Assembly: GCA_051362555.1 (NCBI GenBank)
Contig: CM120640.1
Coordinates: 1,426,001 to 1,490,000, forward strand
Length of the DNA: 64,000 nt
Reading direction: 5' to 3'
From: Lingula anatina
Taxonomy: Eukaryota > Animalia > Brachiopoda
Part shown: one piece after another, positions 581 through 7,504 of the stretch
Layout: the number at the start of each line of letters is the position of its first letter
How positions within the stretch are numbered: position 1 is the stretch's first letter
Position numbers and translations under genes: made by a program
Notes under the pieces: generated by a model
Seen by the model: the letters and a program-made list of their open reading frames with translations, nothing else
Told to the model about the DNA's origin: nothing
Databases searched by the model: none

Positions 581-3084
581 GAGAATAAAATACACTGACG
601 TCACACTGTGTCAACATTATAAAGAATTTCGATGTAGACTGTTCCAAATTGCCGAGACCCCATGACTTAAGGTTAGTTGTAATAAAGAAAAAGAAAACAC
701 AAATCTCGTTGCCTGTGCAGGAGGCCCCAGTGTAATAGCGCCTTGGACCCGGCGTGTTCGATACGTTTTAAGAGCACTTGCGGTGCATATAAAACCAAAT
801 CGCAGGCGTTTTGATGAAACAAAATCATTGACTTAGTTTGTTGCCAGTTACAAAAGAACCAAAACCTAAGACAGTCAGAATCAAACCTATGGTGCAGACG
901 TCATTAATCCACTCAGGAACAATGAATTAAGCCCCGAGCTGGGTGGTTGGACTGTATGCTCACATAACGAAATGGTCGTCCTAAGCCATCATCGGCCATG
1001 TAACCTTTTGCTTGGTTTGCAGTGTCAGTCTAGTGTTCCCTTATTTTCCAGCAATAAAATAATACCTCATGTTTCGAAAGGCAACAAATAACCATTGCGT
1101 TAGAGAAGAAAAACGCTATTTCTGCTCACATGCATTGAGCGCAATCATCCTAGATAAGGCAAAACCTAGTGGCTTAGCGTAAGGTCAAGCGATATTTCTA
1201 GAGATTTGTAGGAGAGTGAGGTCAGAAATAAAGGCAGACTAGCAAGTATTTGAGACTAAAGCTGACACTGGATTTTATTCCCTGTAGTTCTGTCAAAATG
1301 CAGCACAGCACGTACAGTGCCAATTCAACGTGCTTTGCGTGTGGTTTTCTGTATTGCTTTCTAAGCTAACATTCCCGTCGTATAGAGTTTCACTTGCAAA
1401 GTTCACCTCACCGGATTCACGCACGGTTTCCTATCTCGTATGACGCAAGACTGACTTTATGCAATCTAGGCTTATTTCCATTTTAAAACTAACTACTGTT
1501 GAATATCTTTCATTATGTCTGATGTAGAGACAGAATACAGAAAGCACAATTTGGGTACAGTTTTAATTTGGGGGTACTATTTTGCGGGGTTGGAAATCCA
1601 GCTTAGACTTCTGAAATCGCATTTCTGGTGACTTAAAGTCAACTTTGTGAAAATGGTTTATGAACGGTCCACCCACTGTTAATGACGCTGCCATGCTTGC
1701 ATGTAAAACTTGGTCGTAAAACAGAAGAACAGAAGAATATATGAGTTGTGTTCAGTAACCTAAAGACGAATGCAAACCTCCCCGTGTAAACCGGTGTTAA
1801 CAATACAATGTGGTAATCTCGGGTAAAGGCCTTTGCTGTCCTAGTGTTACCGCAGATAAGAAAACTAATGTCGTTATCAGGAATAAATGCTTTGCGGTTG
1901 AGGTGAGAAAAAGAAAACAGCTGTCTGCTATCGAGGAGATGCCTTTCATAATGGCAACTTCGGTTCTTTGGCATGTTATTTCTTTCCTCTGTTCCTGTTT
2001 TTCGAGCAGGCTTTGATATACCTGAACGCTACTTTGGCAACCAAGGGCCACAAGATAAATCCGTCTTCATTGTGTTTTATTAATTTTAAAACCCTTATCT
2101 CATCTTTTTTTCTGCAATAGGACACTTATTAATTTGCAACGGTAACCCGCAAAATCTTACGTAACTTACACTAACTCCTCCCCGACATAAACGTTCTTCA
2201 TTCTGGATGTGTCGGGAATATAAAAAACGAGCAATTTTTGTCATATTAATGGTAAATTTTATTTTGGAAAATTATCTGTTCTGAATGCATGTCCAGAACA
2301 ATATATAAATATATTAGTGTGCTTATGCCCCTAGTCTACAGCGACTACGAATTTCACGAACCGTTTGAACTGATAAATTTTAGAAATCGTGGGGAATTGT
2401 GGAATTTTGCACATATCTGGTAGAAATCTTGTCCCTGCTTAACTTCCGAAATGGATGTTCAGCATAGAGCAGCTATACAAACAGCTATACATTCACTAAT
2501 CATGTTAGATTGTTATCCTTTTTGAAAGCAGGCAGCGCCGCCTACAAGAGATAATTACAGCACGCGGTAGACAGCACGCGGTGGACATTTGACACGTCGG
2601 ATTTTAGGGGGTACATGTAATAAATGTGAATAAATGATATTAAATATTGATATCTTCACCTCTAGTTTGTCTTTTCTGTTTCACTAATCATGTTAGTTAT
2701 GGTATCTGTAATGAAAATCACTATTTATAACAATTTTCACTTGTGATGTGATCATTTATAAATAAAAGCACATGATACTGGAGGTGGGACAACCTTTTTG
2801 ACCAATGTTGTAGTACTGCTCATAGAACTGGCATCAACTGGTGATAAATAGAAGACTGGTTCCAAACTTTTGTGCCGATTTCACGATCTCTCAAAAATTC
2901 CAAGAACTGGCTGAGAATAAATAAAAATCAGTTAAAAGCTTAAAGAATTTATCACTATTGAACTAATAACACTGGAATTTATCAATCCTTGGGTTCGTGG
3001 AATTCGTAGTCTGTGTGGAATATGTGCAATGGGAGGTAGAGCAGAGACAGACGACGGACATGTAAATCATCATCATCATCATCA

Positions 3085-5492
3085 TCATTTAGAGCCTATA
3101 GTGTTCCACTGTTGGACAAAGGCCTCAGCATGCTTTTTCCATTGTTTCCTATCCTGAGCCTCAGATTTCCAGTTTGGCCAAGGTTTCTTCTTCCAAGACT
3201 TCCAGTAATCATCTAATTCATCCCTCCATCGTTTGACCGGCCTTCCTCTTTTTCTTTGTCCATACCTTGGGGTCCATTCTGTAAGCCTGATTGTCCACCT
3301 ATTGTCCTTCATTCTTTTGACATGTCCTGCCCACCTCCATTTCATTTCTTTAACTGTGAACAGTACGTCCTTAACTTTGGTCTGTTCACGTAACCATACA
3401 TTCGTTTTCCGCTCTCTTGGACTGATGTTCAACATAATTCTTTCCATCTTTCTCTGAGCTACTTGTAGCTTCTGTTCCATGGAGGCATTCAGTGCCCAGG
3501 TCTCTGAACCATAGGTGATTGCCGGGAGCACACAAGCATTGAACACTTTCTTTTTCAGGCAGGTAGGAAGGTTGCTCTTGAAGATGTCATTGTGCTTCCC
3601 ACATGCTGCCCATCCTGCTTTTATCCTTCGTTGGATTTCTTTCTCCAGTGTTCGATCACTAAGGCTGAACCGTTGCCCAAGGTATATATACTCTTCTACT
3701 GCTTCTATCTCTTTGGTGTTGACCTTCACTGTGCAAGGGGTGGTTAGTGGTCCAAACATCACCTTTGTCTTGCTGGTGTTCATCTTTAGCCCACTTTTTG
3801 CGCTTTCATGTGCTAACGCCTGTAGCATTTCTTCGAGGTCTTTTGCATCATCTGCTACTATTATGATGTCGTCTGCAAACCTAAGGTGATTGAGCCTGGT
3901 ACCGTCTATGTTTATGCCCTTGTCCTGCCAGTCTAGATCCCTGAATATACGTTCCAATGCTGCTGTGAACAGTTTAGGAGAGATTGTATCTCCTTGGCGT
4001 ACTCCTTTCTTGATCCTGATCTTATTGGTGGTCTTGTGTAGTTTGACTGTTACAGAGCTATCGGTGTATATGTCTCTGAGGACGTCTACGTATCCATCTT
4101 CGATCCCTAGATCTTGCAGGGATGCCAGTATATACTGGGTTTCTACTGAGTCGAAGGCTTTTTCATAATCAACGAATGCTACACATAGTGGAATGTTATA
4201 CTCAAGACATTTCTCTTTGAGCTGGTTGACAGTGTGCATATGATCAGTAGTGGTGTACTGGCCTCTGAAACCTGCTTGTTCCTTTGGCTGCGCTTCATCT
4301 AGTTGTCTTGTTAGCCTTTCGGTCAATATTTTGGTGTAAATCTTGTACAAATTAGAAAGTAGGCAGATGGGTCTGTAATTCTTGATGTCTTTCCTATTGC
4401 CCTTTTTGAACATTATGATCATGTTGGCGTTCTTCCATGCTACAGGAATTTTCTTCAGATTTAGCACTTTGTGAAGAGCCTGGCTAATTCCTGAGATGGG
4501 ATATCTCCTCCTGCTTTTACCATTTCTGCTTTGATGTTGTCATTTCCTGCTGCCCTTCCGTTCTTCATTTTCTGGACTGCTGACTCTACTTCCCAAGCTG
4601 TTATGTCTGGTAGATCGCATGCCTTTGTTGAGATTTCTATTCCCTTGTTGCTGTCATACAACTCTCCATAGAATTCTTCTACTCGTTCTAATATCTGGTC
4701 TTGTGTGGTGAGCTCATTTTCATCTTTGTCTAGAAGAGTCAGCATTCTATCCTGCCCTAGTTGAAAGGATCTCTTTGCTCTTTTCATGCTCTTTCCATTT
4801 TCGATGGTCTCTGCTATCTTCTTCATGTTCTGCTTCCTGATGTCTTCCCTTGCCTTCTTCTTGATGGTCTTATCCGGTTCTGCATATTCGATGTTGTTTC
4901 TGATGTCCCTGTTGTTGTTTACCTCCATTTTCTTCATCATCCGTCTTTTCTTCATGAGAATCCTCGTTTCTGTTGAGAGCTTTGAGTCCTTCATTTTACT
5001 GGCCGGTGCGACTTCTGATGCACATTCTAGGATGGTGGTCGTTATTCTATCGTTCATTTCATCTACTCCATCTTCACCTTCTAGCTCTAGTGCACTGAAT
5101 CTGTTCGTTAGGAGGATTTGGAACTCGTCTTTCTTTATGACCAGTTGCTCGATACTAGGTCTCTTTGATGGATTTGACAGGCATTTCTGTCTGTCCTTCC
5201 TGACATTGATCCTAATCACTCCCATAACTGCTCTGTGGTCACTGCCCGCATCCATCTGTTTAGCACTTTCACATCCGTGAAGATGTTCGGTCTGTTTGTC
5301 ATGATGTAATCAATTTCGTTTCTTGTACATCCATCTGGGCTTTGCCATGTCCATCTTCTTGATATCTTCTTCTTGTAGACGGTATTCATGATCTTCAAGT
5401 TATTTGCTGTCGCCCATTCAATCAGTAAGTCTCCTCTTTCATTCCTCCCTCCACTGCCAAATTTCCCTGTGGCACGCTCTTGTACATCTGAC
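3085..5492 (-). pseudogene. RTE ORF, C-terminal part (end of APE endonuclease, linker, reverse transcriptase), frameshifted
   Basis: Motifs GKFGSGGRNERG, WTWQSPDG..NEIDYI, SDHRAV, NYRPICLL, QAGFR, FVDYEKAFDSV, GVRQGDTISP, LRFADD, YIYLG. Frameshifts near 5255 and 4465 split it into ORFs 5216-5398, 4461-5255 and 3085-4467. Confidence 0.95.
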
Positions 5493-5498
5493 TAATTT

Positions 5499-5571
5499 GA
5501 TGTGATGGCCTAGTGGTTAGCACGCTTGATTCGGGTGTGAGGGGTCCCGGGTTCGAATCCTGTAGCCGCGA
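5499..5571 (+). promoter_or_regulatory. tRNA-Pro(CGG)-derived head with internal Pol III promoter at the RTE 5' end (not a functional tRNA)
   Basis: A box TGGCCTAGTGG 5506-5516; B box GGTTCGAATCC 5550-5560. TTCGGGTGTGAGGGGTCCCGGGTTCGAATCC closely resembles the eukaryotic tRNA-Pro anticodon loop, variable loop and T arm. The acceptor stem does not pair. Confidence 0.85.
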
Positions 5572-5863
5572 TTTATCATTCTGGTAAACATGTAAAACCA
5601 GTACTACCTGTATCATGGTCAGGACCCGTAAGCTTTGAACAGCAACCTGATTAGGAGTTACACAAAAAAAAACCTACTGCCTTAGTAGCAAAAATCCAGC
5701 CGGATCATAAGGCTAGCGGAGAAAAACCGTATACAAACAGAGGGCAGGCAAAGCTCTTTAGTGTGTTCACACAAGTTTGCCTAGGAATAGTGTTGCCAAC
5801 TTCAACACCCTCTCCCAACCCGCAATGGCCAGCGTGGGATGAGTAGGCCTAAAAAATTCCAGC

Positions 5864-6927
5864 ATGAAACGACCAACAAACACACGGCCCCCAGTACCCA
5901 GCCGCACAAACGCCCTGAACTTAGGAGGTGATCCTGGTTCAGACCAGCAGAGTGCAGGAGGTGTTAAGAATCTCTGGGGCAGCAAGGATCACCGAACACC
6001 AAGACCAGTGAAAAATTTCAACATCATTGTTGTCGCTTATGACAACAATTTGCGTTTACAATCGTATCACTAGTCAGCTTTGTATTATTATGCAAATCAT
6101 TTACTCTGTATATATACTGTATGCAGCAGTTCTGGGCGCGGCCACGTTGTATTTGACGAGCGAAGGCTCAGGTCGCCGAGTCTGAAGTTTTAGTAGGCAA
6201 AATTTGTGGATCAACATTTGGACGGGAAAGCCACATTTCTCTGTACGTATTGTATTCAATTCTATTGTTAATCATTTGCACAACATTTCCGTTTCTTATA
6301 ATTAATTTATTATTTCTTTTTATATTTGTATTCAATTTATGTTATATTTGTGTATTTTGTATAATTAGTTTGGTATTTATATTTCATTATTTTGTTATTT
6401 TTAGTTTCACCATGTCCATGTCAGTGTGTGCGTGAAATAAAGTGTGAACATTTCCCGTCGTTTGTTTGTTTGGTGTGGGATCCGCAACAATCATTACTTA
6501 CAACATTAGAACTCTGAAGAACAATGAAAGACTTGCAGAATTGGAAACTGAACTCCAGGACACCGGAGTTAAATGGCATGTGATAGGCTTGTCAGAAGTT
6601 AGGCGAGCGGAAGAACGCTTAATTACCTTGAATAGCGGACATATATTGTACCATACAAATGCTTCAAATGGCCAACAAGGAGTTGGATTTCTGATACACA
6701 AGGCGCTAAGCAAGAACATCATCGAGGTAAAGCAAATTAGCGCAAGGGTGGCTACAGTCAAGCTCAAAGTGAATCAGAGATTCTCAATGAATCTCATTCA
6801 GGTATATATGCACCAACATCAAGCAGACCAAATGAAGAAGTAGAACAACTGTATGAAGAAGTACAACGTCAGTTGACAACAGACTGCCACTACCACATAG
6901 TCATGGGTGATTTCAACGCCAAGATCG
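5864..6927 (+). pseudogene. RTE ORF, N-terminal part (APE endonuclease), interrupted by a solo LTR
   Basis: ATG at 5864 (MKRPTN...GGVKNLW...NFNII). Removing 6028-6494 restores the in-frame NFNIITYNIRTL, followed by IGLSEVRR, GVGFLI, QVY(APT, 2-nt frameshift near 6805) and IVMGDFNAKIG, which ends at the TSD. Confidence 0.92.
6028..6489 (+). mobile_element. Solo LTR (462 bp), BEL/Pao-like termini
   Basis: Ends TGTTG...CAACA; 5-bp TSD ATCAT (6023-6027, 6490-6494); TATA-like run near 6109 and AATAAA near 6436; precise removal restores the RTE reading frame. Confidence 0.88.
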
Positions 6928-7504
6928 GGACATGTAAACAGCAACAGAAAATTGCAATTACAAAGTAATAAGAACATTTAATTATGGCCCCCATCGTAAA
7001 CCAACTGAAATAAAGAGGGGGTACGCCAGCGCGTGGCATCAAAATACAATAAAATATTCATAATAGACATGCTGTTGTCTACTGGCGGTGACGTTCTTGT
7101 AGCAGTGGTAGTGCAGGCAGTTGATGGCTATTACACTTCGTCGTGGTAACACAAAGTCACGACAGGGTCACAGTAAATTCCATAAGTCTGCAATTTTAGG
7201 GTTCATAGTATATTACATCATTTCTGTAATAATGATAATAATAATTATCTATTTATTTAGTGTTTGCCTCGTCACCAAATTCTTAAAAACTTGATAAAAC
7301 ACTGAAACTCTCCTTAAACGATATTTATTTTGAGTATTCAATTCGACATTAGTTTTGCACGTTAAACTTAGATATATTCATGAATATTTTCTTATTCATA
7401 AATATGTCGATAATTTTTACTTTAAAATATAATTTTATGAGTCTACTTAACGTTTTATGGATTTTTAACACTAGATAAATAGATAATTATTATTATCATT
7501 ATTA

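Follow-up and report, generated by a model that had tools for sequence, protein, structure and literature searches.

A covarying pseudoknot ahead of the start codon of a tRNA-headed RTE retrotransposon from Lingula anatina, and a predicted helix joining the start-codon region to the 3' end

Conserved domains have been described in the 5' UTRs of RTE retrotransposons, together with RTE-derived SINEs of bipartite build (Kojima 2018; PMC5786205), and one of them, the conserved RTE 5' UTR domain of the Ceph-SINEs, is treated there as conserved sequence only. The parts of that paper on which we draw work with sequence similarity and hold no pseudoknots, covariation or helix between the 5' and 3' regions; they offer binding of transcription regulators as a speculation, and leave open both the role of the conserved blocks and their retention in non-autonomous elements. 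RTE SINEs have also been reported to carry a bipartite tail (PMC4844689) and a 3' hairpin (PMC6007223), and pairing between the 5' and 3' regions is not described in the passages of these two papers that were searched. In R2, the protein binds a pseudoknot in the 5' RNA, and the sections of PMC6765202 used here place this pseudoknot near the start of the ORF, relate that it has been proposed both as an IRES and as a protein site, and record that R2 also gives rise to bipartite derivatives. The leader described in this work resembles R2 in the place of its pseudoknot, in the two roles proposed for it and in the bipartite derivatives, but R2 has another topology, belongs to another clade and contains an HDV fold, whereas our leader adds a predicted helix to the 3' end. 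Likewise, the HDV-like ribozymes of RTE and L1Tc (PMC6765202, PMC5786205) represent a structured RTE-clade 5' region that has been linked to translation, and the twister T-variants of Perere-3 (PMC8501958) are a structured 5' region of an RTE-clade element. As far as these sources go, such ribozymes sit at the extreme 5' end and cleave, whereas here the 5' end is a tRNA head. Finally, type 4 (HCV-like) IRESs, for which the relevant passage of PMC8789048 gives spacers of 8-17 nt, share with our leader a pseudoknot placed at that distance before the AUG and a length of about 300 nt; the knot found here differs in being a compact local H-type fold with a bulged stem and not the base of a branched domain III.

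The sequence under study is the 5' leader of a tRNA-headed RTE LINE, and the copy present in the window (the whole 64,000-nt stretch of L. anatina DNA that was analysed) is dead. The coordinates of its features are collected in Table 1. The 5' end of the element lies at ~5499-5501, contigs of other genomic copies begin to align at 5501, and the head was called by neither ARAGORN nor Rfam. As in the RTE clade, there is a single ORF with an APE endonuclease and a reverse transcriptase (broken in this copy; RVT_1 match at 3088-4422), a very short 3' UTR, a microsatellite tail and a target-site duplication. The proteins nearest to the endonuclease piece are those of L. anatina, with identities of 92% and 97% for the endonuclease-bearing P0001 and P0003, and the N-terminal part of the ORF is 66% identical to the full-length P0002. 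The 5' part of the ORF is broken by an insert plus a frameshift near 6810. An 11-bp target duplication (3056-3066 and 6928-6938) brackets the whole element and the un-inverted junction is visible in a contig of another copy (loose end behind 5493, DNA run X6), so that the two oppositely oriented parts represent one full-length insertion with a 5' inversion of the twin-priming type. Within the inverted element (3056-6938) the inverted part extends to the very 5' end, that is, to the tRNA head; ~3 nt were lost at the inversion point and 7 nt at 5494-5500 have no assignment. The insert, 462 bp at 6028-6489 inside the RTE ORF, has TGTTG...CAACA ends, an AATAAA signal and a 5-bp duplication (ATCAT), resembles a solo LTR, is missing from other copies of the RTE, and its high contig depth suggests a multicopy family. 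By eye, the element resembles published RTE 5' and 3' pieces. No second copy of the leader or of the knot was found within the window.

Table 1. Position of the RTE features in the window.
Feature	Position	Strand	Remarks
tRNA-like head	5501..5571	+	Pol III box A 5506-5516, box B 5550-5560, read by eye
Domain A copy 1	5612..5664	+	stem 1 3' strand 5625-5630; stem 2 5617-5623 with 5646-5652; inner 3-bp hairpin 5632-5643
Domain A copy 2	5741..5785	+	stem 1 AGGGC 5741-5745 with GCTCT 5753-5757; inner hairpin 5761-5772; then AGG
Hairpin GTGTTG/CAACAC	5789..5809	+	6 bp in window, 7 bp in majority form; between domain A and the knot
Domain B, AUG-proximal H-type pseudoknot	5810..5849	+	bulged stem 1 with invariant CCA/UGG core; stem 2 GGCC/GGCC
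CAGCATG, 5' strand of predicted closing helix	5860..5866	+	includes start codon 5864-5866
RTE ORF, 5' part	5864..6930	+	N-terminal peptide and first half of endonuclease
RTE ORF, 3' part	3085..5493	-	rest of endonuclease, then reverse transcriptase
CATGCTG, 3' strand of predicted closing helix	3126..3132	-	codons just before EAFVQQW at ORF end
3' terminal stem-loop and (TGA)n tail	3067..3125	-	(TGA)n 3067-3087

The premise that this family is transcribed by Pol III, made in an earlier reading of the DNA from its letters (hereafter the sequence-only reading), agrees with the presence of box A and box B and with the lack of the T4 terminator in the sense strand. No T4 run occurs in the 3385 sense bases of the window element, where about 3.4 are expected (P 0.013-0.023 by shuffling), and the deficit is weaker when codon usage is controlled for on the three ORF pieces (P 0.084). 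The tRNA-Val-headed locus L002 has none in 3282 sense bases; twelve other loci have from 1 to 24, most of them at or above expectation, and L008, which has no visible head, is also low (two runs; P 0.035, codon-usage control). As a coding RNA made by Pol III would need to be free of T4, the window element and L002 fit this mode of transcription. tRNA-like heads recur before RTE ORFs in different lineages: besides the window they were seen in L002 (218-292, called by ARAGORN), in L157 (about 3870-3920, by eye) and in L015 (395-483), where a T5 run lies directly behind the head. Four RNA runs yielded 3, 5, 2 and 0 reads, which are too few to reveal 5' ends; nearly all have the first mate on the + strand, and none lies upstream of 5770.

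The segments that the sequence-only reading quoted from the leader are all in their places, with the ATG at 5864. From the window sequence alone, folding of the leader is no better than chance. Its minimum free energy has a z of -0.28, with 39 of 100 shuffles folding equally well, nine sub-windows range from -1.36 to +1.19, and helices of at least 5, 6 and 7 bp number 19, 4 and 1 against 14.7, 3.7 and 0.9 in shuffles, counts that are reached by 35, 99 and 119 of 200 shuffles, respectively. A majority form, built by script from the differences found in contigs of three DNA runs of the same species, is also ordinary by energy (z -0.54). With single-sequence energies being unremarkable, the case for structure rests on comparison. 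The window copy differs from other copies in lacking 6 nt behind 5616 and 9 nt near 5660, in having T for C at 5651, G for T at 5740 and A for G at 5789, and in 3 extra nt at 5855; the 6-nt insertion behind 5616 is carried by one contig at full depth in X3 and appears as loose ends in X1, and at position 5740 every one of the three covering runs shows T at full depth. These differences decide the fate of a three-way junction proposed earlier: its closing stem AGAGGG/CCCTCT is perfect only by virtue of G5740, and the junction therefore depends on a letter that other copies do not have; in the covarying fold AGGGC pairs instead with GCTCT. The hairpin GTGTTG/CAACAC, placed by the sequence-only reading within that junction, is lengthened to seven pairs in other genomic copies, where each of the three covering runs has one contig with A5789G; by eye, L219 has a hairpin of different sequence at the same place. 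Of the other pairings quoted by that reading, CTGGT/ACCAG and CTACT/AGTAG find no backing in the comparison. The strongest helix of the majority form, the internal pairing CUGCCUUA (5677-5684 with 5740-5747), was rejected, as it competes with stem 1 of domain A and is without comparative support.

For the comparison we used 23 loci from metagenome contigs, found with an alignment of the N-terminal protein and with leaders disregarded. The AUG-proximal knot (domain B) occurs in twelve of them (L001, L002, L004, L007, L008, L011, L013, L014, L019, L020, L021 and L022) and is absent from six (L009, L012, L015, L017, L018 and L023, the last with a fragment of it by eye); the other five (L003, L005, L006, L010 and L016) have too little upstream DNA. 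In the window, stem 1 pairs UCCCA 5813-5817 with UGGGA 5835-5839 and, beyond a 3-nt bulge (ACC), CGC 5821-5823 with GCG 5832-5834, and stem 2 pairs GGCC 5827-5830 with GGCC 5846-5849. A strict descriptor of this fold, written after the leaders had been inspected and thus not blind, gave six matches in the 50,475 nt of the loci, all before the endonuclease frame, and a single match in the two strands of the window taken together, which is the knot proposed by the sequence-only reading. In a MAFFT alignment of twelve hand-cut stretches, 90% of the stem 1 cells are paired against 72% in shuffles (reached by 0/500) and 37-52% when the stem is slid along the alignment. In six of its ten pairs both partners have changed, but 48 of 500 shuffles attain as many, and taken alone this measure does not exceed shuffles. 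Furthermore, a covariance model of stem 1 only recovers L014, which lies outside its training set (E about 1e-7) and by eye also carries a 6-bp stem 2. Among ten elements the four letter pairs of stem 2 occur in two forms each, in a search that itself required stem 2. The motif is also found by eye in LINEs and SINEs of coelacanth, butterfly and moth within the portion of the PMC5786205 supplement covered, with GGCC/GGCC, UGCCA/UGGCA and GAGCA/UGCUC as stem 2. Judged by this comparison, the AUG-proximal knot is real and covaries across relatives, which bears out the earlier claim of a structured leader ending in a pseudoknot. The knot before the ATG recurs with compensatory changes, but its register did not stand, and stem 1 had to be redrawn with the CCA/UGG core and the 3-nt bulge. 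The gap of about 14 nt between knot and ATG given by the same reading is that of the window, whereas the family majority has 11 nt (3 nt fewer at 5855); both values lie among the 8-17 nt by which the pseudoknot of type 4 IRESs precedes the initiation codon. A five-codon upstream ORF (5825-5842) begins in the knot loop in frame with the main ORF, and the ATG that L021 has at this position is likewise in frame and reads on into its ORF.

Pattern searches beyond these loci provided both a control and two more relatives. A scan of viral contigs gave 120 matches to the conserved core, none of them RTE, and among these chance matches stem 2 was present in only three. Scanning viral and genome contigs by protein brought up no relative, while the pattern scan of genomes gave 83 matches of which two are RTE (L157 and L219); stem 2 is present in 25 of the 83, the pattern itself having demanded part of it. 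The knot model also gives 32-34 bits to two matches in bacteria (L158 and L213), so that the model score alone is no proof of an element. L157 and L219 are animal-like RTE sequences within prokaryote genome bins, probably by host contamination. In a midpoint-rooted FastTree of the endonuclease (39 of 42 rows, L013, L022 and L023 having been dropped for short overlap), the knot-bearing elements fall into two groups whose union is without support, and the second group has an upstream ORF1 (Pfam Baculo_FP_2nd in L019). In L011 (721-723), L013 (1130-1132) and L019 (1255-1257) a single stop parts ORF1 from an endonuclease-reverse transcriptase in the same frame, with the knot 20-40 nt downstream of the stop, and readthrough or reinitiation is possible there.

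Upstream of domain B the leader contains two copies of a second pseudoknotted domain (domain A), with a stem 1 of 5-6 bp, a stem 2 of 7 bp, an enclosed hairpin of 3-4 bp and AGG after it. By eye, both match the conserved domain of the Ceph-SINEs as given in the part of the PMC5786205 supplement covered. In the window, copy 1 is damaged, as the loss of 6 nt behind 5616 has taken away the 5' strand of its stem 1, and it is also short of the 9 nt near 5660; it has a further hairpin after AGG. In copy 2 stem 2 pairs AGGCAAA 5746-5752 with TTTGCCT 5776-5782. Two pairings named by the sequence-only reading, AGGCAAA/TTTGCCT and TCAGG/CCTGA, are supported, being the same stem 2 in the two copies. With a descriptor of the domain, the majority form yields both copies, the window form copy 2 alone, and 2 of 200 shuffles match as well, figures to be read with its circularity in mind, since it was written from the same sequences. 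On the 23 loci the descriptor gave two AT-rich matches, and a degenerate copy in L004 escaped it. When it was used without change on L219, which was found later, it matched twice in 8033 nt, both times in the leader. By eye, the stretch 4038-4378 (-) of L219 holds four tandem copies (two similar pairs) before domain B. When seven copies are aligned, of which four come from L219 and one is the damaged copy 1 of the window, 87.6% of the cells are paired against 70.4% in shuffles, and nine of thirteen pairs change on both sides, a count reached by 14 of 500 shuffles. On the evidence of these aligned copies, the domain A knot covaries. The motif AAAA(T)TCCAGC occurs twice in the leader, at 5688-5698 before copy 2 and at 5851-5863 before the start codon.

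The sequence-only reading overlooked that the start-codon region can pair with the 3' end. Behind its knot, each element has a segment complementary to one and the same 3' place, namely the codons just before EA(F/Y)xQxW, ~3 kb away in the element RNA. One fixed rule, which sets the 18 nt that follow the knot against 14 nt of the 3' site, was applied to all elements, its windows having been set after viewing the window copy, L002, L008 and L021. Under this rule 7 perfect pairs are obtained in all five elements that have the knot and both ends, in four variants: CAGCATG/CATGCTG (twice), CTCCCAT/ATGGGAG, CTCCTAT/ATAGGAG and CTCCAAC/GTTGGAG. Non-cognate combinations of strands give 3-4 pairs, except for the window with L021, whose letters are identical. 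The cognate score is reached by 2 of 120 permutations, a statistic that comes from few related elements and ignores kinship, and tiles with seven pairs elsewhere in each element number 0/210, 0/202, 3/204, 1/205 and 1/191. The 5' strand of the helix follows the amino-acid changes in the 3' codons (HA, MG, IG or VG before EA). The later-found L219 forms 8 pairs, one of them G-U, which makes a helix of 7-8 bp in all six elements with knot and both ends, two of them sharing one variant; L157 is without a recognisable 3' end. In single-ORF elements the helix covers all or part of the AUG, and L014 retains it without an AUG in it. With an energy of -11.6 kcal/mol the closing helix is weak for seven pairs across 3 kb, and these would need a protein or stacking. 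By energy, the 3' site is the best-ranked partner in the window and in L021, third in L014 and outside the top five in L002 and L008. In the portion of the PMC5786205 supplement covered, six bipartite elements (CoeSINE4, CoeSINE5, RTE-N1_Lch, SINE2-1_PXu, SINE2-1_PPo and HaSE2_DP) keep by eye the knot and the 3' end, and in them both helix strands adjoin, forming a local hairpin of 4-6 bp just before AGGC. Among the other elements of that portion, also by eye, 6 pairs can be formed over 3 kb in the autonomous RTE-4_PPo, and in RTE-N2_Lch the two strands pair only if bulges are allowed.

We give even chances to the reading that the last of the knots and the predicted 7-bp closing helix form a closed-loop signal, which the RTE protein would recognise on the RNAs to be copied. 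In the open state the ribosome would start at the AUG 9-15 nt behind the knot, and in tRNA-headed families this initiation would take place without a cap. Closing of the helix would bury the AUG and switch the RNA from translation to copying; knot, helix and 3' stem-loop would thereby be joined as one composite handle, to which newly made RTE protein would bind for target-primed reverse transcription. Such a signal would explain that a piece of the 5' UTR and the 3' end are kept in non-autonomous RTE derivatives and SINEs, and the retention of knot and 3' end in non-coding derivatives is itself seen in their sequences. That the R2 protein binds a pseudoknot in its own 5' RNA (PMC6765202) also speaks for the signal. 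The closed-loop signal is compatible with an IRES role and the two are not exclusive. Counting against the signal, closed-loop enhancement of translation would yield the same helix, and the tight spacing to the AUG in single-ORF elements fits an IRES equally well. The wider proposal that a large group of RTE LINEs shares an RNA switch, with the knot serving a cap-free start at the AUG and the helix locking the AUG to the 3' end for reverse transcription, is a tentative one, which we hold to be possible but clearly short of probable.

In the main rival reading, by analogy with HCV, the leader would be IRES-like, with domain A and the hairpins recruiting the 40S subunit and the last pseudoknot setting the AUG in the P site; we find this rather doubtful, and equally so its corollary that the 3' pairing would merely regulate or boost translation and that SINEs would keep the knot in order to sit on ribosomes. 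The distance from the first base of the 3' strand of stem 2 to the in-frame AUG, which is 14, 15, 15, 14 and 21 nt in L001, L002, L004, L008 and L007, 18 nt in the window, 15 nt in the majority form and 16 nt in L219 and L157, is as such an IRES would require, and the gap of 8-15 nt between knot and AUG in single-ORF relatives is within the type 4 spacer range, but this regularity breaks down in six elements of the second clade, where the next in-frame AUG is 19, 37, 103, 119 or 139 nt away or absent, in L014, where the knot lies inside the frame, and in L021, where an AUG at 14 nt is out of frame. Internal entry would also suit the position of the knot 20-40 nt after the ORF1 stop in two-ORF elements and the five upstream ATGs of the leader, two of them inside the knot, which would hinder scanning. 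The need for a cap-free start would be understandable in knot-bearing elements with tRNA heads (window, L002 and L157, the first two without T4 runs); however, the knot is also present in L008, L021 and L219, which show T runs and no visible tRNA head, and it is kept in non-coding SINEs. Its occurrence in headless, two-ORF and SINE elements means that an uncapped transcript is not what explains its conservation. Regarding the fold itself, we saw no domain III of the GGG-loop or GA(U/C)A-loop kind, the covarying fold has no branched domain III with a IIId GGG loop and a IIIe tetraloop, its knot being local, and Rfam gave no IRES match on the window, on 5400-6500 or on 15 loci. A type 6 (dicistrovirus IGR) IRES was rejected: the frame of the knot end relative to the ORF is not constant as it is in those IRESs, frames 0, 1 and 2 all occurring among 13 elements, and single-ORF elements have an AUG and not a non-AUG first codon.

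Other roles for the fold appear less probable still. The strand order of domain A resembles the pistol ribozyme topology, and its 7-bp stem, often opening with G-U, its 3-bp hairpin of GCC/GGC type and the AGG that follows could suggest a self-cleaving ribozyme that frees the RNA 5' end, either as an HDV-like variant or with domain A forming a new class. HDV-like and twister ribozymes have been described in RTE elements, in the parts of PMC6765202 and PMC8501958 consulted, but here we judge a ribozyme very improbable. An Rfam search of 5400-6500 at E up to 10 gave no ribozyme and one unrelated weak match, and a scan of the window, 5400-6500 and 15 loci gave no ribozyme family. In the window form of 5400-6500, twister, hammerhead and pistol have neither a family-model match nor a catalytic core, and the leader has no hammerhead CUGANGA core. 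The nested double pseudoknot of HDV (P1, P2, P3, L3, P3', P1', P1.1, P4, J4/2, P2') was not found with descriptors that had no positive control: the strict one gave 0 matches on the window and majority forms, one with L3 up to 45 nt also gave 0, and the matches of a relaxed one, in which alone a catalytic C in C-N-R-A J4/2 followed by P2' is seen, are equalled by 37 of 40 shuffles. One descriptor match lies in L004, far upstream of its leader. Cleavage would moreover sever the tRNA promoter from the element and from the SINEs that carry the domains, an argument also made in the part of PMC5786205 used here, and it would split two-ORF elements. By all these searches the leader is very probably not an HDV-like ribozyme, and the earlier suggestion that it is ribozyme-like finds nothing beyond chance. 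Flavivirus xrRNAs are pseudoknots that protect RNA from 5'-3' exonucleases, and by analogy the knots could shield the RNA with tandem domain A copies as successive blocks, which we regard as improbable. Domain A is indeed a compact knot in tandem (two in the window, four in L219), an uncapped Pol III transcript would need 5' protection, and HDV folds protect R2 templates in this way according to the relevant part of PMC13708176; but most knot-bearing relatives are without domain A by the strict descriptor, and shielding leaves the closing helix, the AUG spacing and the position of the knot between ORF1 and ORF2 without explanation. We also think it extremely unlikely that the conserved blocks act as DNA, as promoter or regulator sites of the kind speculated on by Kojima, with folds that are incidental. 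Single-sequence folding no better than shuffles and an invariant CCA...TGG core could be taken in this sense, but a DNA site would not be expected to show paired letters changing on both sides, as is seen in three domain A stems, in domain B stem 1 and across 3 kb.

For the closed-loop signal, the fold turns the question of the RTE SINEs into a test by compensatory mutations, in a 7-bp helix and in a stem of 4-6 bp. If it holds true, a shared switch would explain the bipartite build of RTE-derived SINEs, and also the repeated promoter swaps to tRNA heads and Pol III transcription in coding RTEs, and it would provide a way for an RNA made by Pol III to be translated. As RTE UTRs serve as template signals in gene-insertion tools (in the part of PMC13708176 consulted), a structural rule for them has a practical bearing. 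LINEs would moreover join those RNAs in which end-to-end closing brings about the change from translation to copying.

In the literature searched, which largely did not include subscription papers, patents and Repbase reports, we found no description of the two pseudoknots or of the 5'-3' helix, nor of end-to-end closing in a non-LTR element. The flavivirus 5'/3' CS with its adjacent pseudoknot, Ty1 CYC5/CYC3 and the HIV-1 U5:AUG pairing are genome cyclisation signals, in which long-range pairing at or near the start codon toggles the RNA between translation and copying. These systems belong to viruses or LTR elements, whereas the element described here is non-LTR. In summary, the blocks as conserved sequence and the structured 5' RNA of R2 with its dual roles were already known, and the pseudoknots and the predicted closing helix are what this work adds to them.
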